Shown here in pieces: positions 284 through 32,400 of a DNA stretch of 34,793 bases; the stretch's first letter is position 1, and each line of letters opens with the position of its first letter. Both the position numbers and the translations under genes were made by a program. Below the pieces are notes generated by a model. That model was not told the DNA's origin, searched no databases, and saw only the letters and a program-made list of their open reading frames with translations. Source of the stretch: Reclinomonas americana ATCC 50394 (Eukaryota); contig PS015471.1 in the NCBI GenBank assembly GCA_048213135.1, forward strand, positions 44,583 through 79,375. Direction: 5' to 3'.

Positions 284-3200
284 TTACTTGTCGAGCAAGT
301 CGTCCAGCGATTCGATTTCGGGATCTGGGTCGTCGGCGGCCACGGTAGCAGTCGAGCCGCGAGACGACAGTGCAGAAGAGGAGCCAGATGATGAGGCTCC
401 CTTCTTGTCGTCCTTCTTGTCATCCTTCTTGTCGTCCTTCTTCATCCACTTGAAGGGCGAGAGGAAGTTGGCCAGCATGCCACGCTTCTTCTTGGATCCG
501 TCACCGTCGCCGCCCTTGTCCTTGTCTGCGGCTGCACTGTCGCCAGGAGCCGATGGGGACGACGGGCCGGCGCTGCCCAGAGGCGATTCAGAATCGGGAG
601 GAGTGCCTTCCGCGTGCGCAATCAGGGCCGCGGAGGCCGTGGTGGACGACGACGAGGAAGAGGAGGAAGAAGCGCCGCCGCCGCCACCGCCAAGAACAGC
701 TTCGGCCGAGAGCGTGGGCTTGGCGTTGTACCGCGCCTGGAACTCGGAGGGCAGTCGATTGAGCATCTCGTCGCGCAGCAGTGTCACGTCCTTGGACTGT
801 GCCGACGACAGCGACGATGTCCACGCCATCATCTCGGTCAGCGACGGCAGGACGCGATCCGTAATCAACTCATTTGGTACGGCTGCAATGGGGCACAGAG
901 TTCAGCCACGGTTGCTGCTGTGTTCTTCACGCATGCGCCGCACGCAACTGCTTCCCATGACAGCGCGGAAGCACTCAATGAGACCGGTGAGCCAGGCCTT
1001 TCGCTTGGCCTTGGAGTCGAGTTCGCGCAGACGGTAGGGGACCATGGTGAATCTTGGAATCAAGACTGTCGCAGGGGGAATGGAAAAGAATCAGTGGTCC
1101 GCCAGCCAGCCTGTCTGCTTCTCTTCGACTTGCACGACAACGCAACAGTTTTCACGAATCTTCTCGTGAACATTCGGCAGTGCCTCCGAGAACGACGTGA
1201 GCATCTCCTCAATGGCCTCGAAACTGGCCCCGTCAAGCAAGCTGTCCATCACAGTTTGCACACGATCGACCACCGGCTGCGACAATCAACGGCGGTGGAT
1301 GAGCCACCAGTGCACTGCAGAAGAATCAGCAACGCGAAACTCACCGACAACGCGTTGACCGAGTTCAGCACCACCGTGAGAGCACGGATCAGTGCACAGC
1401 GGACCTTGGGTGTCTCGTCGGATCCGAAAGTGATGAGCGCAGGCAGCACACGGTTGGAGATCACATCTTCCGATACTTGATCCACCAATGCGCTGAAGAC
1501 AGAAATGAGGATCACGCGCACATTGGCCTCGGGTCGCACCACCAGGTGCCAGAGGGCAACCAGCACCGATTCGGCCAGCGATCGCGACACCGACCTGCAG
1601 CACAATCAGTGTTGTTCTCACAAAGATGAGAAGAGAACCAGCCGACGCAACACTGCATGTCGAACCGCCTCGCACAGCACTTGCGGAGACTCTGCATCCC
1701 ATCGCTTGTCGCCAGACGCCATCTGCGACACGGTAATCTCCAAAAACGTAGTCACATTGGCCTCGTTGATGACGGGCAACACGCCCGACAGGAACGTCAG
1801 CAAAATCGTCTTGCGCGCTGTGCGTCGTCGCGTCAGCATCGTGCGACCAGAAACCACTGTAGCCNNNNNNNNNNNNNNNNNNNNNNNNNNNNNNNNNNNN
1901 NNNNNNNNNNNNNNNNNNNNNNNNNNNNNNNNNNNNNNNNNNNNNNNNNNNNNNNNNNNNNNNNNNNNNNNNNNNNNNNNNNNNNNNNNNNNNNNNNNNN
2001 NNNNNNNNNNNNNNNNNNNNNNNNNNNNNNNNNNNNNNNNNNNNNNNNNNNNNNNNNNNNNNNNNNNNNNNNNNNNNNNNNNNNNNNNNNNNNNNNNNNN
2101 NNNNNNNNNNNNNNNNNNNNNNNNNNNNNNNNNNNNNNNNNNNNNNNNNNNNNNNNNNNNNNNNNNNNNNNNNNNNNNNNNNNNNNNNNNNNNNNNNNNN
2201 NNNNNNNNNNNNNNNNNNNNNNNNNNNNNNNNNNNNNNNNNNNNNNNNNNNNNNNNNNNNNNNNNNNNNNNNNNNNNNNNNNNNNNNNNNNNNNNNNNNN
2301 NNNNNNNNNNNNNNNNNNNNNNNNNNNNNNNNNNNNNNNNNNNNNNNNNNNNNNNNNNNNNNNNNNNNNNNNNNNNNNNNNNNNNNNNNNNNNNNNNNNN
2401 NNNNNNNNNNNNNNNNNNNNNNNNNNNNNNNNNNNNNNNNNNNNNNNNNNNNNNNNNNNNNNNNNNNNNNNNNNNNNNNNNNNNNNNNNNNNNNNNNNNN
2501 NNNNNNNNNNNNNNNNNNNNNNNNNNNNNNNNNNNNNNNNNNNNNNNNNNNNNNNNNNNNNNNNNNNNNNNNNNNNNNNNNNNNNNNNNNNNNNNNNNNN
2601 NNNNNNNNNNNNNNNNNNNNNNNNNNNNNNNNNNNNNNNNNNNNNNNNNNNNNNNNNNNNNNNNNNNNNNNNNNNNNNNNNNNNNNNNNNNNNNNNNNNN
2701 NNNNNNNNNNNNNNNNNNNNNNNNNNNNNNNNNNNNNNNNNNNNNNNNNNNNNNNNNNNNNNNNNNNNNNNNNNNNNNNNNNNNNNNNNNNNNNNNNTGC
2801 AGCTGGCTCGACTTGGAAGAGAGCACGGCGATGGCGTACCCACTTGGAAAGCGCTGGCATCAGGTGCGCAAGAGTGGCCGAGTGCACCGTCGACGACGAG
2901 TCGCCGAGTGCTGCGCGCGTCATGTCCAGCACCTGTGATGACGAGAGCTGCATGAGGATGGTGCACAAGTAAAGCCTCTCATGATCAAAGTGTACAGCGG
3001 CCCACACACCTCTCCCAGTTTGTTGGTGGTCGACATCTTCTCCAGCAGTCTGGACAGACTGACAATGGTGGCCTCACGCACCAAATCAGACTGATCGTGC
3101 AAGAGTTGCGAGAGGATCGGCAACACCAGTGACTCGCGCATGGTGGGCTCCACAAACGATCCAAGACGTCCGCACGCCTCCGCCACCAGTAACCGTCGCT

Positions 3201-5558
3201 CCTCAATCTGATGCGTGACTTGTTCGCACATTTCAGGGAACAAGTCGGATTCGAGCCGCTGGAACGACGAGCGCTCCGACACCTCCACAAACGCCTCCAG
3301 AATGAGTCCGCGCTGCAATCAGCATGGCCACTGGTCAGTAACATTTCACCGACCGAGAAGGGAAAGGGATCGCACCTGTACACGATCTGGCTTGCGGACG
3401 AGATTAAAGAGTGCCAGAGTCAGTTCTTGGCGACGTTTGCTCTTCGGCAGCAACTCCAGCGTGCCCAGCAGCAACGGAATGAGGTCAGGTCTCTTTTGCA
3501 ACGCGACTCCGGGAATAAGATTGATCAGTGCGTCGGCCACCGACATGACAAACTCGGGCGACGCCGGTTTGACATCCACCTCCACCACGGCGGCGGCCGC
3601 TGCGGCCGTTGAGGGCGATGGACTTGAGGGCGAAGAAAGGACGACAGAGACGCCACCAGACGCTGCTGATGACGATGCTGGCGACACTGGCGAAGACTCT
3701 GCACCATGTGCAGCAGCTGCCGGAGGCGACGACGCAGCAGTGGCAGCAGCAGCGGCAGCAGCAGCGACGGCGGCAGCCGAGTCTGCGAATCATCATCACA
3801 CGTCACATGGACAAGCTCCAACTATATGCTGTGGTGGCATCATGTGCGCGACGCAACTGGCTGTCTGCAACTCCGCCGTCAAGTGCGTGACACGATGCAG
3901 TGCCGATGCGAGATCCGCTTGTGACTTGGCGAAATCATGCTCCAGCTTCTCAAGCTTGGTGGCCGCCGTGCGCAACTCGCTCTGCACATGCACTGCGTGA
4001 GGGAAGCTCGGCACCAACAACAGTCTAGAGCACGAGGAATGCTAGCGGACCGTCAACTGTTCTGTCTTGCGACGTGACGTGGGCATGCGATAGTAGCGCA
4101 GCAAGTACACCAAGTCCAGCGGATCGCCCCGCAATGTGCGACTTGATTTGGGATCCGGTACGGCCGTCTCGCTCGCCTGCACTCACACGCAATCATCGGT
4201 ATCAGAGGCGCCACTATGCTGGTCGTCGCTTCTCTCCCTCTCACACACACACTCACCTCGCCTGCTAATGTCACCGCCGTCACCTTGTAGCCATTGGCAC
4301 GCAAGTAGCTGGTCACCAGTGCATTCAGGAGCGCTCGTTCCACCGCCGCAATCGGCGCATGCAGCGCCTCCTGCACGCGCAGTGAGTGATACACATTTGC
4401 ACATGAGTGCATCTATGTGCATACGCAACATCCGACACTTCTTCCGCATCGTGCAGCGCCTGTGCATGCGCCGGTGAGTCGGGATGCTCCAACAGGCGCG
4501 CATCCGACGCAGAACCGGCTGCTGCCGTGGCCGGTGTGACGACCACCGTCGAGGCCGACGATCTCCTGGCGTCGGTGGACGACGACGAGGAGGATGCCGC
4601 TGTGACACACGTTGTTGTTGACAATAATAAGCTCACGATAAACGAACTGTGCGACGAGAGAAACCGACGCACCCGACGCCTTCTCCAGGGCGTTCGCCAG
4701 ATCATCGCGACACACCGACAGCTCATACTCTAGCTGCGCGATGCGTTTCCGATCGGCCTCGGCTCGCTTCTGCAACTCGGCATTGGCCGAACCCGCTGCC
4801 GACACAGTCACCGGCGCCATTGGCGGCCGCCCTCCACTCCCGTCGCCGGCACGGTGGCCGCCAACAGCCGGCGCCCCCTGCGATGACGTATCCGAGGATG
4901 AATCACCCGTTCCACCGCCGCCACCACCGACGCCAAGATACTGCTGTGGGCGTGCTCCGAGGCCCGGCGGCTGAGTGGCATCGGAGGACGACCGACCGCG
5001 CCGAACTGATGCCGCACAACGAAATGAGTGATCACGACCCGGTACGGCACTGGAAGAGATATAGGAGAGGCGTAACGGACACCACCGGCACCACTGCTGC
5101 CGATACCTCCACCGGCGCCACTCTGCGACACCACCTGCGTGGCATTGTTGACGGGCGGAAATCGCACAGAATCACTGAAAAAGGCCTGCAGTTTGTCGCA
5201 GTCTCGACCGCACTCGAGTAGCTCCTGCACGAATGATGACACACATACGCACACACGAATGAGTTTGGCGAAGGGCGTCTGCGTGTGTGTGTGTGTGTGC
5301 GTGCGAGAGGAATCCGCCACGGCGATCGCCCACACCCTCGCACACCCGCGGAAAAGACACACGTGGCACTCATCGCACAGGCACACGGAGACAGACGTGC
5401 ACATGAGACAGAGGGAGAGGGACGGAGAGAGGGAGAGTGTCGGAGAAGGGACGAAACCTCATCATGACACATTGACACTCAACTTGGCGCAGCTCGAGGG
5501 CGGCCAGGTAGAAGCCTTCGTCCAGGAGGTACGACGCCACCTGGTTGACGTCAACCAT
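284..5558 (-). CDS. RELCH: LisH + coiled-coil + HEAT-repeat protein (RELCH/KIAA1468 family), about 15 or more exons, interrupted by the gap at 1865-2797
   Basis: Spliced N-terminus VASYLLDEGFYLAALELRQ|ELLECGRDCDKLQAFFSD; LisH-like ERALLNALVTSYLRANGYKVTAVTLAGE; KRRQELTLALFNLVRKPD; HEAT motifs EERRLLVAEACGRL and LVLPILSQLLHDQSDLVREA; NRVLPALITFGSD. Frame is kept across GT-AG introns to TAA at 284. Confidence 0.88.
1865..2797. other. Assembly gap (other gaps: 9095-9618, 10722-11347, 13904-13973, 21026-21376, 24255-24994, 26511-26925, 33388-33407)
   Basis: Runs of N. Confidence 1.
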
Positions 5559-6783: not shown

Positions 6784-7677
6784 ATGGTGCGTGTGTGGTT
6801 TGTGCGCGTGGCGCCCGACGAAGAAGACGAAGGAGAGCAAAGCAAAAGGGAAGAAGAAGATCGCTTTGTCGCCGAACTGCGCAGGCAGTGGTCATCGTCG
6901 TTGCCGCCACTGGAGCAGGCGCGCGTGGTGCCTGTGCTGGCCACACGCTACCTATTCGACGAACCACCGAGTGCACAAGAGGTGGAGGATGTGATGCGGC
7001 AGCACGACGGACTCGTGTTGACCAGTCGCCGTGGTGTGGTCGGCTTTGCGCACTGGCTGCACCACGTGGGCTCGGTGCCGGCCGAGTGGCCCGTGTTTGT
7101 GGTGGGACCCAGTTGCGTCGCCGCATGATCATCATCGCTTTTTGTTTCCACTCCCCCCACTCACAGCTGGTAAGCAGCGACCGGCGCCGCGGCACAAGAG
7201 TTGCTGCACATCGATGCACAGCGCATGGTCGCTGTCACCGAGGGTGGCGCGAGTGCGCTGGCCGAGGCCATCATTGGTCGGGCGGCGAGCGCAGAGCCAG
7301 CTCGTCGTCTGCTCTTCCCGTGCGGACAACGCCGGCGCAACGAACTGGTCGACTTGCTGACGGCCGCCGAGGCCGCCACCGTCACCGAGCTGGTGGTCTA
7401 CGACTGCACACGCCGACTGTCGGCTGCAGAGGCCGGCATCAATGAAGAAGCCACGCCGCCCGACTGGCTGGTGGTCTTTAGCGGAGCTTGCGCCGAGGCT
7501 GTGTGCGATCTGCTTGGCGAGTGCGATCGGGTGCGTGGAGTCGTCGCTCTTGGACGCACCACCGCCGACGCGTGTCGTGCACTGGGTGTGTGGCCACCCG
7601 ACAGGATCCACACCGCCGCGTCGCCGTCGCCTGCAGACGTGGCGGCCGCACTTGTCCGTCCGTACGCGACTGAGTGA
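6784..7677 (+). CDS. UROS: Uroporphyrinogen-III synthase (HemD/UROS family), 2 exons
   Basis: Motifs VVPVLAT, DGLVLTSRRGV, VFVVGPT|TG, LLFPCG, RRNEL, ELVVY, PDWLVVFSG, VALGRTTA, AASPS. Intron 7112-7177 restores the frame. Confidence 0.8.
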
Positions 7678-7772: not shown

Positions 7773-9094
7773 ATGGCCTCTGCTGCTTCATCGTCGTCTG
7801 GGGACCCTGCGCCTGCCGGCCGTGAAGGGCGTGGTCGCGGTGGCGGTCGTGGTGGTGGAGGTCGTCAAGCGCCGCCCCCAAAGAAGGCCGTTGCCACCTT
7901 TTCGTACCCACAGCAGGAGAGTGCCGAGGGTGTGCTGGTGGACATTGGCATCAACCTGCAGAACAAGCAGTTCCGCGGCGATGAGCTGAAGGTGGGAACA
8001 GAGAGTGCATGCATTCGTGTGTGCAGCTCGCTGACATGCTGGCGAGTGCAGGTGCTCGAGCAGGCGGCAGTGGCCGGTGTGCGTGGCATTGTCATCACTG
8101 GCACCTCGGTGAAGAACTCGCAAAAGGCGTTGCGCGTGCTGCGAGAGTACGGCACCGCGGCTGCGGAGATGGTGTGTGTGAGAAAACAACACCACTGTCA
8201 CCTCCCACTACATCGCTCACTGCGTGCACGACTATGCAGGGTCTCCAACTGTTCTCCACGGCCGGCGTACACCCACACGATGCGTCGTCGTGCGACGGCG
8301 ACACGCTGCGACAACTGACCGACATGCTGCGGGAGCCGAATGTGGTCGCCGTCGGTCCGTGTCTCTCCTTCTCTTCTTCATCGGTCTCCCGTCTCACCCG
8401 CTGCGTGCTGTAGGCGAGTGCGGACTGGACTTTGATCGCATGTTCAGTCCACGGGAGGTGCAGCTGGAGTGGTTTGAGCGGCAAGTGCGATTGGCGTGCG
8501 AGTTGCGCAAGCCGCTGTTCTTGCACGAGCGTGCGGCCGGCGCCGACTTTGTCGCCATCCTCGACAAGTTCAGCAGCGCCGAGTTGCCGCCCGTGTGTGT
8601 ACACTGCTACACGGGCACGGACGAGGAGCTGCAGGCGTACCTCGATCGCGGCTTCTACATTGGTATCACGGGATGGATTTGCGATGAGCGACGCGGCACG
8701 CACTTGCTCGAGTCTGTGAAGCGCATTCCGCGCGACCGGCTGATGATCGAGGTTGGATGTTGTCTCGCCCTCCTCCCCTGTGCATGTGTTCCCTCACCGC
8801 CTCGTCGTGCTCAGACGGACGCGCCGTTCTTGATTCCGCGCAACATTCGCCCCAAGCCCAAGTTCCACCGCAACGAGCCTGCTCTGCTGCCGTTTGTGTG
8901 CCGCATGATCTCCGAGGCTCTGGGCATGTCGTTCGACGAAGTTGCGTTCTGTGTGCACGGCGCACCGAGTCGAGTGGCCTTTCCTCATTTCACCGTTCAC
9001 AGGTGGCCACGATGACCACGGAAAACGCCGAGCGTTTCTTCGGCGTCAGCATCGACCGTGGAATCAGTCCCGCTGCGGCTGCTGCCGCCACCGT
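7773..9094 (+). CDS. TatD-family metal-dependent nuclease with RGG-rich N-terminus; 3' end in gap
   Basis: [74 protein letters not shown]. Five GT-AG introns. An in-frame upstream ATG lies at 7695. Confidence 0.93.
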
Positions 9095-9618: not shown

Positions 9619-12600
9619 AGCGCGGCACCAGCACGGCGGGTGGCATGGTGGCAAAGCCAGCCAGGCCCGAGTAGATGAAAGACAGGAATGCCGTGAACAC
9701 GAGCGGGTCGTTGTCCAGAGCCTCGAGTCCCGAATCACTCGACTCCAACATCTCCGAGCCCAACATGGCCGCAAAGTAGTCCGAGCGCGCCACGAGAACC
9801 TTTCGGCAGCACACACACACACACACACACAATTCCACATTAGACGACAATCACACATCGAGACTGAAGAGCGACGCAGAGAACCGACCTCCTTGTGCGC
9901 CAGCAATACTGACTGATCGCGCAACCGAATCACCAGGTCGCTGGTGGAGGGATCGTTGAGCACCGGTTGATCTGCAAAGGCGGCGGCACAGAGAGGGGGA
10001 GGTGAGATGCAGGTGCGTAACGACACGCAGGAGAACGAAATCACTGACGCACCGGCAGACGGCAAGAATGTGGAAGCATGCGGCACAAACACCGCACCGT
10101 CAACATCCATGTCACCGCCATCGGCACCTGCGCCACCGATCTCCGCAGTGGCCTCGGGTTTGTTGGCACCAAACACCGCCTTGCTGTGCTCCAGGACGTG
10201 GAAAAACACTACACACAGCAGACTGCCAGGTGAGAACAGCAGGCTGGTGGGTGGAGAACACACGCGCAGGTGACCGCACCATCCAGAATCTTGAAGACGC
10301 CGCAGTACTCGCCCAGCAACAGGTCTGAATGCTCGTTCAGGACCTGGAGGCACTTGACCACACCCAAGTGCACGGCCTTGGCATAGACCACCTGCGATGC
10401 GCAAGTGAGTGAGTGGCAAGGAAGCCGCACTGTGCAGTGAGAGGGGGGAGAGAGAGAGACAGAGGCGCACCTCACGAATGGGATTCTGGCCAAGGGGACT
10501 GCACAAGTGCGGGAAAGCACCACCCTCCAACAGCAGCTGTGCGATTTCGGCGTGACCGTGATGGATTGCCGTGTGCAACGGAGTCCACAGATTGCGATCC
10601 TGCGGCATGGTCAGTGAGCAATCAACCAGCAGTCGCTCAACCAGACAGCGTTTGCTCACCACTGCCATGAGATTGGCGCCGTATTTGAGCAGCGTGCGCA
10701 CAGTGGAAGCTTGGCCTGTTGNNNNNNNNNNNNNNNNNNNNNNNNNNNNNNNNNNNNNNNNNNNNNNNNNNNNNNNNNNNNNNNNNNNNNNNNNNNNNNN
10801 NNNNNNNNNNNNNNNNNNNNNNNNNNNNNNNNNNNNNNNNNNNNNNNNNNNNNNNNNNNNNNNNNNNNNNNNNNNNNNNNNNNNNNNNNNNNNNNNNNNN
10901 NNNNNNNNNNNNNNNNNNNNNNNNNNNNNNNNNNNNNNNNNNNNNNNNNNNNNNNNNNNNNNNNNNNNNNNNNNNNNNNNNNNNNNNNNNNNNNNNNNNN
11001 NNNNNNNNNNNNNNNNNNNNNNNNNNNNNNNNNNNNNNNNNNNNNNNNNNNNNNNNNNNNNNNNNNNNNNNNNNNNNNNNNNNNNNNNNNNNNNNNNNNN
11101 NNNNNNNNNNNNNNNNNNNNNNNNNNNNNNNNNNNNNNNNNNNNNNNNNNNNNNNNNNNNNNNNNNNNNNNNNNNNNNNNNNNNNNNNNNNNNNNNNNNN
11201 NNNNNNNNNNNNNNNNNNNNNNNNNNNNNNNNNNNNNNNNNNNNNNNNNNNNNNNNNNNNNNNNNNNNNNNNNNNNNNNNNNNNNNNNNNNNNNNNNNNN
11301 NNNNNNNNNNNNNNNNNNNNNNNNNNNNNNNNNNNNNNNNNNNNNNNGAAACGTGAGGAAAATGAGCAGGCCAGCGAACTCTCAACGTCGACCAACGCAC
11401 CGGTGCAACACAGCGAATTGCAGCGGTGTAAATTCGGCACCATTCAACGCATCAATGTCCTTGTACAGCGGCGCCAGATATCGCACACATCGGTCGCCGT
11501 AGCGAGCGGCAATGTGCAGCGCCTGCAAAAGCACAACAATTCAGCGGCCGACGAGACACAAAATGCGATTACAAACACACACACCGTGAGACCGTGCTTC
11601 TCCGTGCACAACAGATTGGCGCCGGCCTCCACAAGGCGCTTTGTGCATTCGACTTGGTCGCGGAAGCAACTAAAAATCAGGGGTGTTGAGTTGACATGAT
11701 CGCCCTCGTCCAGTCGAACCTGCGTTTCCACTCGGTCAGTAAGTACGCCCGGAATGTCATCGTCACGTGTGGACCGCCCATCGCAACTCTCTTCTCAATC
11801 AGCAAATCCAGCGCATGTGTGTTGCCGGCCAGCGATGCATTGTGAATCGGGCGGAAGCGATTCAGGTCCGGCGCATCTGGCTTGGCGCCACGCTCGTTCA
11901 ACAGCGTGCGCAGAATCTCGGGGTTGTCCTGTAAAACAAATGCGTGCATGAGGTGAGCGGAACCGAGGCAGAGAAGGCGATGACACTTTCACCAACCTTG
12001 AAGCAGAAGCAGGTGAGGTGCACCACCTCGATGCCCTTCGGGTCGCTCTTGGCGACATCGGTGCCGAACCGAAGGAGCAGGCGCACGAGTTCCTCATTCA
12101 TGCGCAAGCACGCCTCGGTCAGCACGCTGCACTCGGCCAGATCCAGAGCGTTTGGATCGGCTCCGTTTTGCAGCAAAAGTGCCGCGCAGTCCTGCTTCTC
12201 GGCAAACACTGCGTAATGCAGCGGTGTACCGCCTTCCCTGTCGCGCGCATTGACCTGCGCGCCCTGCTCCAACAGATAATTCACACAGTCCACGTTTCCA
12301 CCAGCAGCCGCCCAGTGCAACAAGGTGGCGCCGTTGCGACTGGCATGATGTACGGTGATGCGCGGCAAGATGCTGCATGATTGACAACAACAAACAAGAG
12401 AAAGCGTAGAGTCGCATCAGCAACTCTACTCGAGTGGCACACAAAGTGCGTGCGGCGCGTTACCGTTGGAGGGCCTTGATTTCGCCCTCGGCGGCCCAGA
12501 TGAATGCCATATCTTCGCGACAGAATCGCGGCAATAGTGACCGGATGCATGCACCCGGTGGCAGCCGCTCATACTCCTCCTCGGCCGACAGTCCACGATG

Positions 12601-13846
12601 CAAGAAAGCCTGCTCAACAACAAGAGGGGGTGAACAAGCAACATCACCATCATCCCAACGGACAACCTAAAAGACGAAACATCTGGATCGCCTCCGAGCA
12701 TCACAGGCGAGGCGCGCACCTCGTCCACCGCCGGACGAGCGCGATCGTACTGGCTGCACGACGGACTGGCGTGCAGGCTGGAGCTGGCGAATGGGTGCTC
12801 GCGCGCCGGCAGTGCCATGGACGACGACAACGGAATGCGCGCCACATTCAACTCATCCTCGTCGCGGCCGGGGCGGTACGATGGTAGCCGTGACACGTAT
12901 TGCATGTCGAGGCAGAGCAGATCGTGGGAGAAGATCTTGTTGAACTTGTGCTTGGAGGTGAGATCACCGCCAAAGATAATCGCATGCGACTGGTACAAGT
13001 CGCACGAGTGACTGAATCGGTTCAGCAAACGCGTTCGGTTGACGCGGATCTTGGACCAGTGGTGCCCGACGAGGTCCAAGCAGTAGATGTCCCCGAGGTA
13101 GGCCCAGTCGACTGTGCGACCACCGACCACAAACAACTTGTCTTCGTAGACAAATGTGGCGTGCGATCCGGTGGGTGGCGGAGCCTCGCCAGTCGCGTGG
13201 ATCTTGGTCCACTGGTGTGCCACTGTGAATTGCGTCGTTCAACACACACACCCCGACCATTGAGGGAAGGAAGGGATCGTTGTCGATGCATGCATACCTC
13301 GGTCGAAAATGAAGGCGTCGTTGTAGAGTTGCACGAGATTGAGGTCACGCTCACCGCCAAAGAGCACATACGCATTGTCGCGCCACTTGCTGAACGTGTG
13401 CCGACACCGCTGACCAGGTAAGTCACCGCGCACGTCGCTCAACACATCCCACTGCGAGCGCTCCACGTTGAGACGCGTCATGCGATCCGACGTCTTCCAC
13501 TGCATAAAGAGACCGCCGCCAAAGCAGTACACATCGTCGCCCGTGATGCACGGTGGCGAGTACTGGCAGGCGTGCAGCGGGTAGTCCGTCGGCCGCGACT
13601 GGATCCATGTGGAACCCGAGCCTGTGTGCGTGTGCGCGCTGCGTGAGTGACGCAACCGCAAATGGAAACCGCGTGCGCACCAAAGACACACACGGAACCT
13701 CGATCGTCCAAGTCCAACGAGTACATGATCTTGTTGACCTCGTTGCGCTCTTTGACGCCGCCCACCACATGCAAGCGATCGCCCATCACAAACGACGAGT
13801 GGCCGTACAAGCCGACGGGCAACGACGGCGCCGCCGTCACCACCAT
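9619..13846 (-). CDS. Kelch-repeat + ankyrin-repeat + BTB/POZ protein (single spliced gene); internal gap, 3' end in gap
   Basis: ATG at 13846. Kelch blades LHVVGG, VYCFGG, YVLFGG, LFVVGG, AIIFGG. Ankyrin repeats TLLHWAA, TPLHYAV, RPIHNAS, TPLIFSC, ALHIAA, TPLQFAV, TPLHTAI. BTB SDLVIRLRDQSVLLAHKE|VLVARSDYFAAML...FLSFIYSG. A linker exon at about 12464-12610 joins Kelch and ankyrin parts in frame. Confidence 0.8.
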
Positions 13847-16366: not shown

Positions 16367-17965
16367 ATGCGCGCACTCGTGCTCCTCATTGCACTCTTTG
16401 CAACACTGGCGATTGTGTGCCACGCACAGTCCGCTCTGCGCGGCCAATCAGACGACAACGAGGAGAAGTTCACTGTCGGCGGCAATCCCAACTCTCCGTA
16501 TCGGTGAGCGAGAATGACCCCCACATGCATTTTTTGACTGCACTCTTGATTGACTCACTGTGTCTGCTGCAGCATCCGGAGCATCTACTATGATTCTAAC
16601 AAGATCTACTTTGTGAGTGGCGCACGCTCTCTATGCGCATGTGTCCGCTGACGCCGCTCTCTCTCTGTACAGACTGTTGACTCGTCGCCCAACGCATACG
16701 TCTGCAAAACAGGCGCCATGTCCACAGACATTAACAGTCTGGTGTACGTGCCCATTGCTCAGGACCGCCTTGGTGCCATTGTGAAGCCGACGGAGAAGAA
16801 CACACCGGAATTCTACGACATGCTTTATGTGGCCGGCACGACCTCCATTTACACCATCCGGACCGCCGATCTGGCCACTCTCGAGAGCAACCGCGTCATC
16901 AGTGACCCCAGCAAGGTGTTTGGAAGAATGGGTGCGTGCACGTGAGAGTCTGCTGTTCGTTTCTGCTCCGAGATCCCATGACTGACTGGTGTGCAGGCTT
17001 GGCGCTGAGTGCCGACGAGGAGTACCTGGTGCGCTCCTCCAACCACGTCCTTGTTGCCCTTTAATTTGGCTCACACGCGACTGCAGTACACCGCGGTGAA
17101 CAATGCCGACAGCAATGCGCACTTCAAGCTGACGGTGTCCGGATTTGGCGTGCCGTCTCTCAACACCACCAACTTCATCTACCCGGGCAGTTACAACGCG
17201 GAGAGCCGCGAGTCCATGACCAACGGTGTCTTCGGCTCGGATCCGAACTTCGTATACTTTGTGGTGCCGAATGGCAGCGAAAACTACATCTACCCCGACA
17301 CTCCGGCGCAGGGTGCCGTGGTGCAGTTCAATGTTGCCGACAAGCGCTACTTGACGCCGACTAAGCTCGTGTCGCTCCCGGCCGGTGTCGATTACGGCAA
17401 GAACGCCTTCTTTGTGGTTTCGTGATGGCGCCACTCTGCTTTTTGTGTGATCATGATAGAAGTGCTTATCAACACGCTGCAGCCGCACTACACGCAAGCC
17501 GACATTGTGTACATTGTGTCGGAGACTGGCCAGGTGCAGCCGGTGCAACTCGGCAGCGGCGACGCCTTCAAGCTGTTGCCTGGCAATTACACGCTGGCAG
17601 GACCCCTCGGCGGTGAAACTTACATCTCCGCCGTTGCCTCGTCAATCCTCCTCGTGCCGGGCTCCGCGGAATCTGGCCTTGCGCAGCGAGTCAAGCGCAC
17701 CACACTTGTCACCCGCTCGTCGAAGCCCGTGTTCGTGCAGCCCAAGAATCGCCTCATCCGCCTGGACATCACCACTGGCTCCATTGACTTTGTGCTGCGC
17801 GACCGCTGGTGGAGCGCATACGATATGACCGCACTGGCGGTGTCGGACGACGTCGGCAACTCCTTCGTGGGAATCTTCATGGACGGCGAGGTGTGCCTGG
17901 CGTGGAACCTTGACAACAGCTTCAGCAGCAACAACTTGGCGTGTTACCCGCAGCTTGCGGTGTAA
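16367..17965 (+). CDS. Unknown secreted protein, beta-strand-rich (possible beta-propeller), 6 exons
   Basis: Signal-peptide-like MRALVLLIALFATLAIVCHA. Exons 16367-16503, 16573-16612, 16673-16931, about 16997-17028, about 17087-17416 and 17483-17965 join in frame through GT-AG introns. Segments such as LYVAG, GLALSADEEYL and ALAVSDD. Confidence 0.75.
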
Positions 17966-18223: not shown

Positions 18224-19231
18224 ATGTCGGTGATTGGTATCGACTTTGGTAACGATCGGTGAGTCTATTTGTGCCCGACATGTCCCCTACTCTCTGTTCT
18301 CTCTCTCTCCCTCCCTTTCTGCTTTTCTCCACTTCCTAGTCGTCTCGTGTATGCGCGATCTCTGCGCAAGTGTGTGTGTGTGTTGTCCGTTCCACATATT
18401 CTGCGTGCTTGCGTCATGAGGAATTTGTCAGCAGAGACTTACGCACTGTGTGATCATTGCCACAGATGCAAGGTCTCGCTACCTGCAGGTGGCATCGTCG
18501 AAGTGGTGCTGAACGAGGTCTCCAATCGCGAAACACCGTTGCGTTTGCTTGCTTGCGTGGGGGGACAAGTGCTTGCGTCATGTGTGTGCCATGCTCACGT
18601 GTGAGCCACACTCTTCTTCTTCTTCTTCTTCTCCCGTCTTCTCCAACAGAACATTGATTGGCTTCAGCGATAAGGAACGCGACATTGGCGAAACGGCGTT
18701 GTCAAGGGTGAGTGAGTGAGTGAGTGAGTGAGGTGCTGACGTGGCTGACAACTGGTGTGCTCATCGTCATACACAGCTGTCGATGAACTACGCCAACACG
18801 GTGGTCGGCCTGAAGGTGTTCATCGGTCGCAAGTTCAGCGAGTCGATTGTGCAGGATGAGATTGCTCGAGTGGGATGCACTGTCGTGGAGGGCCAGAACG
18901 GCGATGCGGCGTTTGAGGTTTGTGCAGAGAGAGCGAGAGGCTCGTCTTCCTGTGCCGATTGCTCATTGTGTGGTTTCGGGATCGCACAGGTGGAGTACCA
19001 GGGCAGGAAGGTGATTGTGACGCCCGAGCAGTGCGTGGCGGCGCTCTTCCGTCGCTTCAAGGAGTTCGCCGAGCAAAAGATCGGCAGCAAGGTCGCCGAT
19101 TGTGTGGTGGCGGTGCCGAGCTACTTCTCCGACGCACAACGCCGTGCCGTGTTCAACTCGTGCAGCATTGCTGGCCTCTGCTGCCTGCGTGTGTTTAGCG
19201 AGAGCGCTGCTGGTGAGACTGGCTACTTTGT

Positions 19232-19281
<50 letters not shown>

Positions 19282-21025
19282 CGTGTCGTCTGGCTCACCG
19301 TTCCTCCCCGCTGTGCAGTGAGTCTGCAGTACGCCTTCTCGCGCCTCAGCGAGTTGCCGACCGCCGATCAGGACGCTCGCCTGGTGATGTTTGTCGATCT
19401 GGGACACTCGTCGCTGGACGTCACGATCAGCAGCTTCAACCAGAACGGCTTGAAGGTGCGTTCCACGCGTATGCGACACACGTTGTGTGACCGGCACACT
19501 GTCCTCACTCGCCTCTTTTACCCGCAGGTGCTGGCTGCCGTGTCGAACCCTCACATTGGCACTCGCGATTTGGATTTGGTGATTGCCGAGTGGGTCCGCG
19601 CCAAGTTCCAGGCGCAAACCGGTCTCGATGTGCGCGAGCGCAAGCGCAACTGGATTCGTCTCCTGGCCGCTGCCGAGCGCTTCAAGAAGCTGCTGTCGGC
19701 CAATCGAGTGGTGCCCGTGAATGTGGAGAGCATCTTTGGCGATCACGACTTCCGTGGCACGATTGAGCGCGAGGAGTTCGAGTCGCTGGCGCAGGGCACG
19801 CTCAGCCAGATGATGGCCCCGATTCACACCTGCATTGCCATGGCCAGTTGCGTGTGGCTGTTCCCCTCTATAGTCTACAGCTGTTCTCCAGTCGTTTCTC
19901 ACGTGTGATATACACATTTGCAGAGGTCGCCGCCACGTCGCTGCACTCGATTGAGATTATCGGTGGAGGTTCGCGCATTCCGGCGTTCCAGCAGCAGGTC
20001 AAGGACTTCCTTGGCCAGCCGAGCCAGACGCTGAGTGCCACCGAGGCCGTCTCGATCGGCGCATCGTGGATGGGCGCCATTCTCAGCCCGTCGTACCGCG
20101 TGCGTCCGTTCGAGGTGCGCGACACTGTTCCGTACCCGATCAACCTGCACTGGGGCGCCGCCAGCAAGGTCCAGTCTAGCGGCATGGATGTCGACGACAC
20201 GTCACCTGTTGCGTCACTCATCCCACCTCCACTGTTCCGCATTTCTCCTTCTGTGTGTGTGTGTGCTGACCCTCGTCGGCTGCGCAGCTGTTCACTCAAG
20301 GCGAGGTGTACCCGGTGATGAAGTGCATTACGTTCCGCGAGACCGACGACATTATCCTGTCGGTTGAGTACGACCGCCGTGTCGAGTACCGCACGCCCGA
20401 CGACCACCCTGTAGTGTTGGGCGAGTTCCGCGTGAAGGGCGTTCCGCGCGATTTGGTGGACGGCAAGAAGCCCAAGGTCAAGGTGCAGCTGCGCATGAAC
20501 ATGCACGGAGTGGTGGAGGTCGAGTGGGCACGCCTGATCGAGGAGTACGAGGAGGTGGTGGAGCCGGCAAAGGAGGGTGAGGCCAGTGGAGCAGAGGGTG
20601 CAGCGGCGGCGGCCGAGCCTGTGCTGAAGAAGAAGGTCCGCAAGACCGATCTGGAGGTCGAATCGCGCGTCAATGGACTCACGTCGCAGGTGGTCGAGGT
20701 ACGTTTGTCTGGGGGGAGGAGGGGGATGATGTAGTCTGTAGGAGAAGACTGACACTCTTCATGTTGCAGCGATTCCGCCAATCCGAAGACGAGATGGTGG
20801 CCAAGGACAAGCTGGTGCTGCAGACGCAGGAGGTCAAGAATGCTGTGGAGGCCTACATTTATGCCTTCCGAAGCCGCGTGCAAGAGTACGGTGATTTGGT
20901 CGACTACGAGGTGGCAGAGGTGAGAGAGAGGACACTGGATGCAAGTGCAAGGGCTGTGTATATGCATGATGCTCACAAACGTGTGCTTCATTCTTTCGCA
21001 GATTCGTGACGCCTTCTTGGCATAC
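18224..21025 (+). CDS. Hsp110/Sse1-type Hsp70 superfamily chaperone; 3' end in gap
   Basis: MSVIGIDFG, NEVSNRETP, DCVVAVPSYFSDAQRRA, VMFVDLGHS, KKLLSAN, IEIIGGGSRIP, AILSPSYRVRPFEVRD, KVKVQLRMNMHG, KKKVRKTDL, KNAVEAYIY. Ten introns traced. Confidence 0.95.
18708..18731 (+). repeat. (GTGA)n tetranucleotide repeat beginning at a splice donor
   Basis: gtgagtgagtgagtgagtgagtga: six units starting at the donor of Hsp110 intron 3. Confidence 0.9.
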
Positions 21026-21382: not shown

Positions 21383-22627
21383 TTACTTTGGGATCCAGTA
21401 GCCTAGCTTGCTCCGAGCTGGGTGCTCGGGATTGAAGACCAACTCCTGCCACGCCTTGTGCGTCTCCTCGACAATGTCGAGAGCGTACTTGACGCCGCGG
21501 TACTCGCCGTTGAAGGCGAACTCGTTCTCGCCCTTGCCCTCGGCGGTCTTGTAGTACCGGAACCAGTGGCGAATGGCGTCCAGCTGCCCGGGGAACACCT
21601 TGTCCACGTCCGTAATATCTGCAAAGCCACGGTGAGCACCAGCAACACAACAGCAACAACATCCATCTCACGACACGCACCATTGAGCTCAGCCGCACGC
21701 TGGTGATTCTTGCGAATGGCCACCACCTTCCAGTCGGTCTCTCCGCCGTCCACCAAGCCCAGCACGCCGAGCACTTTGACCGGCACCGTGTCGCCCATGA
21801 TGATCGGAGTTTCGCCAATCTCCACCACATCGAGCGGATCGCCGTCGCCCATGAAGCCCGTGTCGGGGTGCTTGTGTTCTGGGTTCTCCCACGTCCGCGG
21901 GAAGCACCCGTAGTTGAACGGCATGGCGCCGTACTTGAAGAATCTGCTCCACGGAACCGTGTTAAAGTGTGCGCCACACGAAGAGAGGGGAGTGAGCGAC
22001 TAGGTACGTAACCGCAGTTCGCCCTTCTTGAGATCCTGCTTCAGCGGATTGTGCGGCTCCTCCTTGTTGACCTCCATCTTGGGGTACGTTCTACAAACAA
22101 AACGGACCGTGAGCGCGGTCCACGTGGCATGCATGCACTGGAAAGAGAGACGCGTAACGCAACCCCTTGGGGATCTCATTGACAAACGTGAACACCGGAT
22201 CGCGTGCGCCCGGCGCCGTCAACGCCAGCGGCAAGTCATGCCACGGCGACAGTCGCACACCCGCAGCAGTCTTGAGAAACACGCGAAACTCCTTCGTCTC
22301 TGGCTTGCCAATCAGTTCCACGTGTTGCTGCAAATGCATGCATGCACAAGGTCAGTCATGCATTACTCCTCTCTCTCTCTCTCTGTGTATCTCTCTACAT
22401 CGCGTGACTACCTCATTGCTGCCTCTCTCCTCGTCGACAGCGACCCACATCCACATCATGGCAATGCACACGCCGACAAACAGCACCGCCACTGTCATCA
22501 CGCTTGTGCTCTACAACATAAAAACACGCGTGTGTGTCTATGTGCTCAACACACACACACGCACAATGAGAGAGAAAGACGCAACAGTGACAGTGGTGCT
22601 GAACCGACGCAGACACCGTCCAAGCAT
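21383..22627 (-). CDS. Family I inorganic pyrophosphatase with an N-terminal basic leader and hydrophobic segment, 6 exons
   Basis: SPWHDLPL, VNEIPKG|TYPKME, NPLKQDLKKGELR, NYGCFPRTWE, GDGDPLDVVEIG, VKVLG..GLVDGGETDWKVV, WFRYYK. Two upstream exons (22627-22586, 22510-22412) splice in frame to the catalytic exons. Confidence 0.92.
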
Positions 22628-22711
22628 GCCAATGACCATCGTCTCTCTCGCTCTCTTGCAACAAACACGTGTAAAGTGGCCTAAAGTCGCTGGCAATTTC
22701 GTTCTTTTGTG
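22628..22711. promoter_or_regulatory. Probable bidirectional promoter pyrophosphatase/MGAT1
   Basis: 84 bp between divergent ATGs; contains the palindrome ACACGTGT. Confidence 0.5.
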
Positions 22712-24994: not shown

Positions 24995-27244
<2,250 letters not shown>

Positions 27245-27324: not shown

Positions 27325-29335
27325 TCAAGTAAATCCCGCCTGTGCCAGCGGCCTTCCACTGTCCACTGGCAGCCCTCTTGCCGAGGAGACCGGTACCGCT
27401 TCGCCACCGTTGGTCATGGAGAAGTGTTCCCGGAAACCGGCGTACCGCAAAAACGCATCAATCTCATCGTGTCGCGCGACGGGTTGAGCCGCTGGCTCTG
27501 CTACGGCGGCGGCTGTTGGTGTTGGTGGTGCTTGCTGGTGATGTTGTTGTTGCTGCTGCTGGTGTTGTTGTTGCTGTTGTGAGAGGTGCGCGGCGTGGGC
27601 AAACACTGTGCGTGGTGACGGCTGGCCACTATGCTGGTATTGCGACATGGCTCGCCGCGCAGGCGAGAGGCTCTGTGAGCCGCCCAGGAGCGTCGACAGG
27701 GGCACCGTTACTGTGCTGGACATGGCAGCAGCGCCACGGGGCGAGGTCAGGAACGCGTTGTGGTAATGTTGCTGGTAGCTGGCCTCCTGCTGGCGAGCTC
27801 GCACGGCATCTCGATCCGACGCCTGCTGGTACAGCCGTTCAAATGGCGAACCGTCACGGTACAGCGACCGACTGCGTGGGTTGATCGACGGCACACCTCG
27901 GCTCGGTGAACCTGCACGAATCACGCTCGTGTGAGACACACTGCTCACCAAGCACCCTCTCCGTTCCCCCACACGCAACTGTCTTCGCGCAGCGTGGCCA
28001 GCTTCTCCTCGCGCTGCCGTTGGAACTCATACGCCCGTTCGACCACGGGCTTGCCCTCGGGAGCCACCTTGCGTGCCAGCTTCTTCGAGCGCTCGTTCAG
28101 CTCCGGCTTGAAGGTGAGATCACGCGTGCGTTCCTCCTCCATGCGTTTCTCAATCGCGTGCAGATTGTCCTTCTTCACCTCCACCCACTGGTGCAGCGCC
28201 TCGATGCCGCGGTTGAGGGTCTTGGAGCGTTTGTTGATCTGCGGCTTGGCCTGCACCTCCTTCAACTCCATGTCCTTCAGTTGCTGCGTCTGCCGCTCCA
28301 GCTCCTCCTTTCGTTGCGTCTCCAACACGTCCATGCGCTCCCGGATGGGTGCTACTCAACGGAGGTGAGAAACGTGCGCAAAACAAAGAGACGCGATGTG
28401 GGCGACAAACCGAGAGAGGCCGTCAGCTTTCGCGATTTCTTCGAGATCTCCGGTCGATTCCTCAGCTCGGCTGTCTCCGCGGCCTCCCGCTCCGCACGAA
28501 TCGCATCACGCTTCACCGTCGCCGCCTCCTTGTGCCGCAGCAGCCGCTCGGCCACCAGCTTGGCTCGGGACATTGTAATCTTCTTGTTTGACGGTCGCCA
28601 CCCCGGCGTGTCGACATCCACACTCTCCCCTCGCGCCGACCCACGTGCCGACGCTGCCGTCGCAGCCACCACCGCCCCTGCAGCGGCCGCCGAGCTCGGC
28701 GAAGGCGTCGCTGCCGCCTGCTGCTGTCGTCTCCGCCCTGCCGACGCATCACGCGGTGCCGATCGACTGCGCAAACGAAATCACATGAGTGCAACGACGA
28801 CGATGGCAGCGAGCGCACGCACGAGAACAAACCTGCGTCCATTGGAGGCAGCGCGACGTGGAGTCACCGCCGCCGACTCCTCCGCCTCCGGCTCCTCGCG
28901 ATCCACACTCACTCGTCGCCGCACCTCCACCGCCGTGCCACCCAGCATCTTCGACAGCTCCGAGAGCGCTGCCTGTGTGTGTGTGTGCGTGTGTGGTGAG
29001 ACAACAAACACAAGAGAAAAATCGAAGAGCGGACCACTCGCATCAGCAAAACGGACCTCCAACTGATCACGATTCTGGTACGCTGGCACCGCCGCTGCTG
29101 ATCCTCCGCGCGACAGTGCCGTGCGCGATGACGTGTCGCCCTGTCGCCCACCCGCGCCATTGGCGGCGGCGTGATAAAAGGCGTTGCCGAGGGCACTGCG
29201 CGTCTTTGTGGCTCCTCCTTGCTCAGAAGAGACACCAAAGAAGCGTCGCGCATCGCTGCCTGCGTCGTCCTCGTCGCTGTCGGTGTAGTAGTGCGCAATC
29301 ATGCCCAGCGCATCCTCAGCACGTACGTCCACCAT
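27325..29335 (-). CDS. Uncharacterised coiled-coil protein with four PxIxxxSxxL repeats and a poly-Q tract, about 5 exons
   Basis: Frame-consistent exons with RPEISKKSRKL, KPQINKRSKTL, FKPELNERSKKLA and VPSINPRSRSL, plus ER(M/AY/LY) helices. The start (29335 or 29302) is uncertain. Confidence 0.65.
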
Positions 29336-29443: not shown

Positions 29444-32400
29444 ATGCATCGCAGTGCGGCGGCCTGGTCGGCCTGGCGTGTGCAGCAAACACAGCAAGGC
29501 GAGCTGGACGATGTGGAAGAAGAGGTGGCGCTGATGAAGGCGTGGATTATGAACTTTCCGGTGGAGTCCTCCGCGCTGCCTCTGGCGTCGTCTGTCACAC
29601 TAGATGTCGATGGTTTGCGCATGAGGCAAGGAGTGGACAGTGTGTGTGTGTGTGTGTGTTGCTTATGTGTGGTTGTGCGCAGTGGCGGCGGCGGCGGCGG
29701 TGCAACAGAGTGGAGTGCTCACGCCGCTGTCGGCGTTGGTGGTCAGTTTGCCTCCTCGCGCACACACACACATATGCTGTCTCTCTCTCATGAGTGTACG
29801 TATGTGCGCGCGCAGACGGATGACTCGTCGTCGTCGTCCATGTCGTCGCCACCGGTGACCACGCGCATGGTGCCGGCATTTGCTGACGATGTTCGTAAAA
29901 GGGGGTTGACTGCCGTCTATGCGTGTGTGTTCGGCCCTGTGCTCACCATTGCGTTGCAGCAGCACGTGAGTGCATCACAGAAACCACCGCCGGTGGTGGT
30001 GCCGGATGAGGTGCGGCGTTGTGCGGTGGTGTGTTTGCTGTTTGTGTCGCTTGCTGATCATGTAAGTGTACACTCGCAGTTTCTGCCATCTCCGGTTCCG
30101 TCGTTTGCATCGACCGCGGTGACGGCCACGGCGGCTGCAGTAGCAGCGACACAGCCGCTCCCGTCGCTGGTCAATGCTACGCTGGTGAGTGGCCTTTTGT
30201 GTGCATGTTGTCGGATGAGGAGATGAGTCTCACACCAGCGGCGGTGCATTGCAGGCGGGAAAGCCGTCGGCAGTCGCGCAGCAGGAACCGCAGCAGGCAT
30301 CAGTCACTAACGTCGTTCGCACTGCCGCGCCGCCGCCGCCGCCGCCGCCGACTGCATCTGCTGCAGTTGCGCGCGCGCGTGCTCTCGGAGCTCACTGGTT
30401 TCTTTGCTGCTCACTCGCACCACAGCAGCGCACTGTGCATGTCGTGGACGTCGGCATGGGTGGTGCCGACGACGAAGATGTGGAACAGGAACCGGAGCCG
30501 CATGTTAGGTTACCAACGCCGCTGGCATCGTTGGCCCATTACACCGACGGTGATCGGGATAGCGACGGCGAGGTCTGGTGTTCTGTGTGGACACGCTTCG
30601 CTCTACCTCACTGTTGCACTCAACGCTTCACCGTCGTGCGCAGTCGGACGACACCCCGCCGCCCACGCCGACTCCTGCAGTACAGGCGCCGTCAACGTTG
30701 CCGCCGCCGGAACCGCCGGTCGCACCAAGCTCGCCATTCTTGAGACCATTCGCAGTGGTTTCGAACTCACCGGCCACTCCCACTTCGGCTTCCGCCGCAC
30801 CCCTGGCGGAGTTGGTGGGTTTCTTTGATTGCCACGTCGCTGTGCGAATGCACTGTGGAGACATGACTTCTGAATGGTCTGTCTCTGTGTGTGTCACAGA
30901 GTCCGTGGCTGGGAGCGTACAGTGACTCGCACGACTCGGACGACTCGGACAACGAAGCCGACAACGATGTCGACAGTGAGCCCATGTCGCCTCCACCTCC
31001 ACCTCCTCCACCTCCACCGCCAGCGCCGCCGCAACCGCAAAAGCAGCATCAGGCGCCGAAGACAACTGTTATGGAGTCACCGGCGGTCACGCATGCAGCG
31101 GCGAATCGTGCAGTGGCTGCAGTGGTGCACAATGACACTCACAGTGCGACAACGGAGAGCACAGCGGAACCGTCGGACGCCGACGACACCACTATTCCGT
31201 CGCCGGCCATGGTCGGCAAGTCGCCATCGGCTCCCCCAGCTCTGCCTACCAGTGCACTTGGAGACAGCAACGGTGCACTCGTGAGGCATCCGTCGCTGGA
31301 TACGTATGAGGAGGAGGAGGAGGAGGAAGAGGCGAATGGGAGAAAGGAGAATGGCGACGGCGGCGATGGCGACGACGGTGGTGATGATGATGACGACGAC
31401 GACGACTGGCAAGTCACCGAAGAGTCCGACGTTTCGGAGGCCGGCAACAGCAAAGGCGGAGTGCCGCAGATTGAGATCAGTGCCGTGCCGGGAGGAACGA
31501 AGAGACATGCAGGAGAGCGCCGTCATTCTGCTGGCGATGGACGAAGTAACGGTTATCACGGCTCTCATGAGAACGGCGGCGGCGATGACGACGATGACGA
31601 CGATGATGAGCTGTTTGATCGAAAATCAGATGCGGAGCACTTTCTGGAGGCTCTGGAGGCCGAGCTTGCCGCCAGTGCACCGACAAGTCAGCGCAACAGT
31701 GCGAGGGGTTCGAGGTTAGCTTTTTTCTTGCTCGTGCGTGTGTTTGTGTGCACGGCGATGTTTCTCATGCAGCTATCGCTGTTGTGCATGCAGCAATGTC
31801 TCGCTGTCACTGTCGCGCTCAAGTACACGCAGTGCGCCGCAGAGTGCGCGTGATGTAGAGGTGCAGCACAGTGCGCGCAGCGAAGGCAGTGCGTATGCGC
31901 ATGTGGAAGTTCTCGGAGGGGCGACAACAGCGCTGTCAGAGACGCAGCTCAGAGTGTGTCACCCGTGTGCTTGTGCTTGGTTCTCGTCAACTCACTCACG
32001 CATCTCAACGATCGCTGCAGCCACCGGAGGCGAGTCTCGACGGCTCCTATTCCAGTCACTCGATATCGGCGCCAGTTTCACCGGCACCAAGTGCAGGATC
32101 CAGCGCCAGCTCTCGGTCACGTACGGTTGCTAGCGACAAGGCAATACCCGTGTCTGCTATAACGGTGGCTCCCAGTGTTATCGCTCCAGCAGCAAACGAG
32201 GCTGTGAAGAAGCAGCTGCCGTTGACTCCTGCTGCTCCTCCGGCTTCAACTGTGCATTCTGTGTCGACTGCTCCTGTTGCAACTGCGGCTCTTGCCGCTT
32301 TGGCTGCTCCGACTGCTTCCATTGTGCCTGCTGCGTTGGCTGTCCATTCTGCTGCGGCTGCTCCGACTGGTTCCATTGCTGGATCAACCGCTCCTGCTGC

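Follow-up and report, generated by a model that had tools for sequence, protein, structure and literature searches.

GTTGCGT is an abundant 5′ splice site

In a window of 34,793 bases from Reclinomonas americana ATCC 50394 (contig PS015471.1), we find that the heptamer GTTGCGT acts as a true, information-rich donor at about one intron in five, the introns concerned being ordinary GT-AG introns of the U2 type. The window includes eight masked runs (3,679 N in all), and G+C makes up ~59% of the unmasked bases. Few intron positions are as strongly conserved as the G at +5 of the donor. Here, donors with +5G are referred to as class A, and donors with T at +3 and G at +6 as class B. The heptamer corresponds to the local donor GTGCGT with one additional T. 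A sequence-only reading of the same window had listed 18 donors starting with GTTGCG, usually GTTGCGT, which lack +5G and are spread over about 10 genes. This description is borne out in each respect: GTTGCG is found at all 18 positions on the expected strand, 16 of the 18 read GTTGCGT, C occupies +5 and G occupies +6 in every one of them, T follows at +7 in 16, and about 10 genes are involved.

GTTGCG occurs 43 times in the window (16 on the plus and 27 on the minus strand), among 4,242 GT sites. The heptamer GTTGCGT is found 2.3 times as often as expected from a first-order Markov model (19 versus 8.3). It is also biased in its orientation, with 18 copies in the sense of the gene territory and one antisense (n = 19, binomial p 6e-4). 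Sixteen of the 19 copies are claimed donors, and none falls within sense exons of the gene models. The 24 copies of GTTGCG in which the next base is A, C or G are scattered across exons, both sense and antisense, and only two of them are claimed donors. The discriminating signal is the heptamer GTTGCGT, not the hexamer.

Donor use was assessed with a donor-blind Viterbi gene parser, in which codon-usage log-odds were trained on Pfam-aligned stretches, any GT was accepted with no donor motif, and a bonus was given at the 3′ end for CT[ACG]AC plus YAG. The parser was run on both strands with four intron penalties, calling 64, 95, 134 and 177 introns. GTTGCG is the top donor hexamer at all four penalties (8/64, 9/95, 10/134 and 12/177, respectively), the expected counts being 0.65 to 1.79 (binomial p 3e-7 to 1.3e-6). 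Eight of the 18 claimed sites are recovered at every penalty (948, 1651, 7112, 11787, 16069, 19847, 22163 and 27979), site 4429 is recovered at penalty 12 and below, and sites 1146 and 8941 at penalty 8. When donor-blind parses and homology are combined, 12 of the 18 sites have support that is independent of the motif.

Homology places four class B junctions to the residue (26010, 19847, 22163 and 11787). Conserved protein motifs had previously been proposed to fix several junctions; at 26010 and 22163 the placement is exact, and at 7112 it proved approximate. The corresponding introns, together with an ordinary +5G control, are the following (lengths in nucleotides, nt).

25925..26010, minus strand: class B intron, GTTGCGT, 86 nt; MAP-kinase-like gene, splits a codon of the catalytic loop
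22091..22163, minus strand: class B intron, GTTGCGT, 73 nt; inorganic pyrophosphatase, found by the donor-blind parser at all penalties
19847..19923, plus strand: class B intron, GTTGCGT, 77 nt; Hsp110-like gene, found by the donor-blind parser
11720..11787, minus strand: class B intron, GTTGCGA (no T at +7), 68 nt; Kelch/ankyrin/BTB gene, found by the donor-blind parser
7112..7177, plus strand: class B intron, GTTGCGT, 66 nt; uroporphyrinogen-III synthase (UROS), found by the donor-blind parser
8752..8814, plus strand: control, ordinary +5G intron, GTTGGA, 63 nt; TatD, in frame and stop-free

At 26010, the last exon codon matches position 124 of the Pkinase profile, and the first codon past the CAG acceptor matches position 125. 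An in-phase GT located 21 nt downstream, which was chosen by one donor-blind parse, would add seven residues to the catalytic loop. At 22163, the alignment to PDB entry 6c45_A runs to residue 52 in the upstream open reading frame (ORF) and picks up at residue 55 in the downstream one; residues 53 and 54 are supplied by the split codon plus one more codon, leaving no gap. Among PDB entries, 5wrt_A, probably an apicomplexan enzyme, matches the N-terminus of the pyrophosphatase best (E 1.3e-8, versus 1.5e-3 for 6c45_A). At 19847, the last full upstream codon corresponds to position 320 of the HSP70 profile and the first full downstream codon to position 322, and at 11787, excision of the 68 nt preserves the 33-residue ankyrin spacing across the junction. 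At 7112, the HEM4 profile covers positions 16-80 upstream and 78-215 downstream, an overlap of three positions which makes the support approximate; there is no in-phase GT within 21 nt. In the control, the alignment to 3rcm_A is interrupted at chain residue 207 and continues from 207/208, with 20 unaligned query residues exactly over the intron. This TatD intron is stop-free in frame, and ORF-based annotation would read through it.

The earlier estimate that GTTGCG accounts for about a fifth of introns agrees with a donor-informed parse, in which 12 of the 62 short introns in sense models (19%) start with this hexamer. The 62 introns comprise 38 of class A, 16 of class B and 8 others. Besides the 12 GTTGCG donors, class B includes GTTACGT, GTTTCGT (twice) and GTTCTGT, and a GTTCCGT donor at 13698 was present in an earlier parse. 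With the GTTACGT, GTTTCGT and GTTCCGT donors included, the pattern is GTTNCGT. Among the 16 class B introns of the parse, T at +3 and G at +6 are invariant (16/16 each), C at +5 and T at +7 are found in 15/16 each, and G at +4 in 12/16. T is also the commonest +3 base among donors in a donor-blind parse (22 of 49 short introns). The GTTGCGT sites are real and abundant donors.

Class B introns are ordinary at the 3′ end

Apart from the donor, class B introns closely resemble those of class A. All 18 class B sites open with GT, and all 17 assignable acceptors end with YAG. Each of the 18 is followed by a short stretch resembling an intron, with a motif of the CTCAC/CTGAC type and a CAG or TAG. 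Position -3 of the acceptor is C in 15 of 17 class B introns (T in the other two) and in 34 of 38 class A introns. Class B introns are 57-112 nt long; both classes have a median of 68 nt (Mann-Whitney p 0.60) and are alike in base composition. The branch motif CT[ACG]AC is found in 11/17 class B and 21/38 class A introns. In 10 of those 11 class B introns it lies 12-22 nt ahead of the intron end, and the distances in class A are similar. CTCAC is the commonest form in both classes, followed by CTGAC (15 and 6 copies, respectively, in class A), with CTAAC seen once.

Two special intron types were considered and rejected. U12-type signals are absent: neither the donor RTATCCTT nor the branch TCCTTRAY occurs in any of the 17 class B introns, and RTATCCTT is not found on either strand of the window. 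As for introner copies, a blastn-short comparison of the 17 class B intron bodies returned 96 short hits, the longest among the 10 listed being 15 nt at 93% identity; the matches listed are only short and of low complexity.

Exon preferences of class B are displaced by one base

The two classes differ on the exon side of the junction. G occupies the last exon position (-1) in only 2/18 class B sites versus 21/30 class A sites (Fisher p 8e-5). In this comparison, class B is represented by the 18 claimed sites and class A by 30 sites, GTGTGT donors having been excluded as ambiguous. The class B composition at -1 is A8 T6 G2 C2, which differs from class A at -1 (permutation p 1.5e-4) and matches class A at -2 (p 0.64). 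Similarly, class B at -2 differs from class A at -2 (p 0.012) and matches class A at -3 (p 0.26). The dinucleotide CA directly precedes 6/18 class B sites, versus 7% in the exon background (p 0.001). In the seven phase-0 class B sites, G or C is found at -1 only once, despite a G+C content of 0.73 at third codon positions (p 0.002). Thus, the A/T preference at -1, which matches that of class A at -2, favors a one-base shift of the whole frame over a bulge. A bulged U, or a U1 small nuclear RNA (snRNA) with an extra base, should keep the -1 G, so neither fits. The sequence-only reading had left open whether the register is shifted or bulged; the exon-side composition favors the former. Written out, N-W-G|G-T-G-C-G-T and N-W|G-T-T-G-C-G-T form one nine-position pattern with one substitution, the class B cut falling one base earlier.

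As regards the excluded donors, (GT)n runs often adjoin donors, making several GTGTGT donors ambiguous. In the whole window, GTGTGTG occurs 89 times on sense strands versus 10 times on antisense strands.

Pairing with U1 snRNA

Duplexes of the two donor classes with candidate U1 5′ ends were compared in a thermodynamic model. With the canonical 5′ end, the mean is -1.5 kcal/mol for class B versus -5.5 kcal/mol for class A, and the C frequently present at +4 of class A is left unexplained. With a hypothetical end complementary to GUGCGU, the modelled mean is -8.3 kcal/mol for both classes, and 18/18 class B sites pair in the +1 register. With a hypothetical end complementary to GUUGCGU, class B reaches -11.2 kcal/mol in the model, with 18/18 sites in the normal register. 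The bulged register is never the best fold for class B in these models. An Rfam search of the window found no snRNA gene at the gathering threshold; with the limit relaxed to E of at most 1 there was again no snRNA, and three sub-threshold microRNA or long non-coding RNA matches were obtained.

Candidate modes of recognition

We regard a shifted register as having roughly an even chance of being correct. Here, the frame which reads (A/T)G|GTGCGT would slide by one base at (A/T)|GTTGCGT. The first intron G of GTTGCGT would take the place of the usual last exon G, the T in second place would face the partner of the normal +1G as the single mismatch, and +6G and +7T would act as +5G and +6T. The cut would still be made before the only GT available, presumably fixed later by U6, U5 and Prp8. 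U1 snRNA would be the reader, with one U1 probably serving both classes, a scheme that would work in the model if the U1 5′ end complements GUGCGU rather than GUAAGU. A broader proposal, that the lineage uses a routine two-register code, is more tentative and in our view doubtful. Under this code, a single altered U1 with a 5′ end complementary to GUGCGU would read both classes and U6, U5 and Prp8 would cut one base apart, or else a second type of U1 would serve the longer motif.

Several observations weigh against the shifted register or, more generally, against class B as delimited here. Canonical-U1 duplexes of class B are very weak (-3.8 to +0.5 kcal/mol) and adopt the shifted register in just 9/18 cases, so that the shift explains the data only if the U1 of this organism differs from the canonical one. 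A dedicated complementary RNA would account just as well for the near-invariant +4G and +5C. On the exon side, C is found at -2 in 10/18 class B sites, yet class A shows no preference for C at -3 (8/30), and T at -1 (6/18) cannot pair under the shift, where it would face a U. The pattern is also absent from five other GTTNNGT donors, in which -1 is G, T, G, G and T. The samples are small (18 and 30 sites), and class A was drawn from our own parser, which may err when choosing between in-phase sites. With respect to the sites themselves, the bare hexamer GTTGCG is just 1.2 times as frequent as the Markov expectation (43 versus 35.9), and 6/18 claimed sites have no independent support, one of them running into masked sequence. 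At 20208, the donor-blind parses keep the acceptor and place the donor at a GT lying 18 nt upstream, which would do just as well, and at 22585, a canonical in-phase GTGCGT lies 21 nt downstream.

The last points are those on which an artefact would rest, in which the hand-traced donors are wrong, nearby in-phase GTs being used at several of them, or the motif arises by chance or is carried by a repeat such as an introner or by U12-type introns. This explanation is already largely refuted and hardly credible, given the four homology-exact junctions, the first rank of GTTGCG in a parser with no donor prior, the 18 to 1 strand bias of GTTGCGT, and the results for introners (no intron-body match longer than 15 nt among those listed) and U12-type signals (0/17). 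If the donors are real, the heptamer may be read by a dedicated or co-evolved U1, either a variant or the only copy, with a 5′ end fully complementary to GUUGCGU, so that class B pairs in the normal register and class A with a bulge on the U1 strand. Such a U1 would account for class B positions +3 to +7 being almost invariant, more so than any class A hexamer, and for the strong modelled duplexes in the normal register; there is a precedent in Entamoeba for a U1 recognition sequence that co-evolved with atypical donors (bioRxiv 10.1101/2022.06.08.495308). However, a normal register should retain the -1 G, which is seen in only 2/18 sites, and would not predict the one-base displacement of exon preferences; we consider this alternative unlikely.

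The bulged register, in which +1G and +2U pair normally, one U of +2/+3 bulges out and +4 to +7 pair like +3 to +6, is in line with GTTGCGT being GTGCGT plus one T. The bulge +2/+3 register is proven for human sites (PMC4856993), and other GTTNCGT donors (GTTACGT, GTTCCGT, GTTTCGT) do have -1 G in 3/5 cases. It nevertheless predicts the -1 G that is common in class A and rare in class B and is never the best class B fold in the duplex models, which makes it quite improbable. Finally, the heptamer could be recognized with little contribution from U1, mainly by U6, U5, Prp8 or a protein factor. Two classes of 5′ splice sites with anti-correlated exon and intron contributions are described in PMC11732430, class B is intron-strong and exon-weak, and its canonical-U1 duplexes are weak. 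Such a see-saw predicts background composition at -1 and -2, however, rather than enrichment of CA (6/18 versus 7%) or A/T at -1 against the codon bias (1/7 G or C), and the pairing of the U6 ACAGA box would also have to accommodate the extra base. Accordingly, we find recognition of this kind very unlikely.

Comparison with known systems

Human 5′ splice sites in a shifted (+1) register were reportedly described by Roca and Krainer in 2009, a study cited by Tan 2016 (PMC4856993). The sequence-only reading had noted that mammalian analogues are rare, which is consistent with Tan 2016, where all validated noncanonical registers together make up 1.5% of 201,541 human 5′ splice sites, and the bulge +2/+3 register is predicted for 68 human sites. 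Human shifted-register sites resemble class B in that they lack +5G, have G and U one position deeper and carry a U after GU. In both cases cleavage stays at GU while, in human, the U1 pairs are displaced by one base; in class B, the exon preference is displaced as well. They differ in abundance, being rare in human, whereas here GTTGCG donors account for ~19% of introns and represent the single commonest donor motif. The human sites are also GUUAAGU-like, whereas the GC-rich GUUGCGU is a poor fit to the canonical U1 end. Human bulge +2/+3 sites (Roca et al. 2012; Tan 2016) likewise exceed the consensus by a single U following GU; however, they keep -1G, which the class B sites lack.

Another parallel is provided by the GUUUGU donors of Entamoeba (Roy and Bowser 2022), which are also atypical throughout a lineage, have U at +3 and show that an altered U1 5′ end can underlie a motif. 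There, a single atypical motif is found on nearly all introns of an intron-poor genome, whereas the DNA studied here is intron-dense and has motifs of two lengths. The exon- and intron-weighted classes of 5′ splice sites (PMC11732430) are similar to classes A and B in coexisting, but share one register and keep +5G, whereas the second class here is one base longer. A literature search, with supplementary files and subscription journals outside its scope, found no description of GTTGCGT-type donors for any organism; the word 'splice' does not occur in the main text of the chromerid genome paper (PMC4501334). In its overall statistics the window matches the values tabulated for Vitrella brassicaformis (GC 58.1%, median intron 81 nt with a mode of 74 nt, 7.9 introns per gene, mean gene length 2.7 kb; PMC9250747), a resemblance that amounts to no more than a guess as to lineage. 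Plasmodiophora brassicae (GC 59%) was rejected as a candidate lineage, its 86 known introns measuring 55.66 ± 7.01 nt (PMC2483917) versus 57-112 nt for the introns here.

If the shifted register is correct, register flexibility can be a mainstream solution rather than a tolerated exception, and a fifth of introns would rely on what is, in animals, a rare exception. The genome would then offer natural sites in their hundreds or thousands for studying how U1 binding is uncoupled from the choice of the cleavage site. Annotation would be affected too, since scores computed from six intron bases with a +5G prior would be wrong for one intron in five. The shift also yields a sharp prediction for the 5′ end of the U1 snRNA of this organism: if a single U1 serves both classes, GC should replace UU at its positions 5-6.

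Other class B sites and related donors

The remaining claimed sites and the related donors vary in the evidence behind them.

16069..16130, plus strand: class B intron, GTTGCGT, 62 nt; Nucleotid_trans gene, found by the donor-blind parser at all penalties; CTCAC branch, GCAG acceptor; in-phase GT 3 nt upstream of the donor
27912..27979, minus strand: class B intron, GTTGCGT, 68 nt (acceptors at 83 or 108 nt possible); gene with no Pfam match, found by the donor-blind parser
1595..1651, minus strand: class B intron, GTTGCGT, 57 nt; HEAT-repeat gene, found by the donor-blind parser; no in-phase GT alternative
883..948, minus strand: class B intron, GTTGCGT, 66 nt; HEAT-repeat gene, found by the donor-blind parser
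4371..4429, minus strand: class B intron, GTTGCGT, 59 nt; upstream of the LisH exon, found by the parser at penalties of at most 12; CTCAC branch, GCAG acceptor
1066..1146, minus strand: class B intron with weaker support, GTTGCGT, 81 nt; found by the donor-blind parser at penalty 8 only
8941..9002, plus strand: class B intron, GTTGCGT, 62 nt; before the last visible TatD exon, found by the donor-blind parser at penalty 8 only
18538..18649, plus strand: candidate class B intron, GTTGCGT, 112 nt; near the 5′ end of the Hsp110-like gene, frame-compatible acceptor
20208..20287, plus strand: ambiguous class B intron, GTTGCGT, 80 nt; variable region of the Hsp110-like gene, donor-informed parse
3783..3857, minus strand: candidate class B intron, GTTGCGT, 75 nt; before an Ala/Ser-rich stretch, chosen by no parse
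30366..30425, plus strand: candidate class B intron, GTTGCGC (no T at +7), 60 or 63 nt; no Pfam match
22511..22585, minus strand: ambiguous candidate class B intron, GTTGCGT, 75 nt; upstream of the pyrophosphatase core, where the parser starts the gene at a later ATG
25036..25042, minus strand: GTTGCGT claimed as donor; the intron enters the masked run 24255-24994
21944..22012, minus strand: intron of 69 nt with the related donor GTTACGT; pyrophosphatase, donor-blind parses; the exon end is the end of the PDB alignment
12610..12680, minus strand: intron of 71 nt with the related donor GTTTCGT; found in parses
17417..17482, plus strand: intron of 66 nt with the related donor GTTTCGT; found in parses

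The exon downstream of 8941, the last of the TatD gene, encodes 30 residues with no match in PDB; it presumably resembles the TatD C-terminus. The two short Hsp110 5′ exons flanking 18538 have no match in Pfam or PDB, and the motif at this junction agrees with what we take to be the Hsp110 N-terminal motif.

Three copies of the heptamer were not among the claimed donors.

6704, plus strand: GTTGCGT upstream of the UROS start codon
13656, minus strand: GTTGCGT inside or at the start of an intron
28313, antisense: GTTGCGT

The copy at 6704 lies 80 nt 5′ of the predicted UROS ATG (6784), with TGTAG ~50 nt further on (6704-6756), and may mark an intron in the 5′ untranslated region that was absent from the earlier list. 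The copy at 13656 either falls within a likely 77-nt intron (13622-13698) opening with GTTCCGT at 13698 or acts as donor for an intron of 35 nt, and these models are indistinguishable.

Gene content of the window

The gene map is based on Pfam scans of 426 stop-to-stop ORFs of at least 50 residues.

~1-5500, minus strand: HEAT/LisH gene or genes
5899-6294, plus strand: L7Ae
6757-7674, plus strand: uroporphyrinogen-III synthase (UROS)
7985-9092, plus strand: TatD
9619-13880, minus strand: Kelch/ankyrin/BTB gene
15310-16221, plus strand: Nucleotid_trans gene
~18263-21000, plus strand: Hsp70-superfamily (Hsp110-like) gene
21386-22760, minus strand: inorganic pyrophosphatase
22675-24252, plus strand: GNT-I
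24995-26508, minus strand: protein kinase (MAP-kinase-like)

Every Pfam domain is spread across several ORFs, indicating that this is intron-dense eukaryotic DNA. The identity of GNT-I was confirmed by an ESM Atlas search, in which the taxa listed were Streptophyta, Chordata, Arthropoda and one bacterial phylum, no score exceeded 0.83 and no particular lineage was indicated. A further Pfam scan, of 62 ORFs from the conserved genes that were short or had given no match before, yielded two relevant matches, to pieces of Pkinase and of the HSP70 C-terminal part, and none for the exons next to 18538, 22163 or 8941. Between 27000 and 34793, no Pfam family is found on ORFs of at least 50 residues, weak chance matches aside. 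Beyond 27000 the gene models and even the coding strand are uncertain, which also concerns the surroundings of claimed donors 27979 and 30366.

On the minus strand at 18705-19367, ORFs antisense to the Hsp70-family gene match the Pfam family NAD-GH (PF10712; E 1.7e-5 and 1e-7). We take this family to have been built on antisense frames of Hsp70 genes, and the matches do not represent a real gene. The TatD gene matches bacterial TatD structures (E 6e-42 to 4e-37) far better than it does human TATDN1 (E 4e-17) and nonetheless has several spliceosomal introns.

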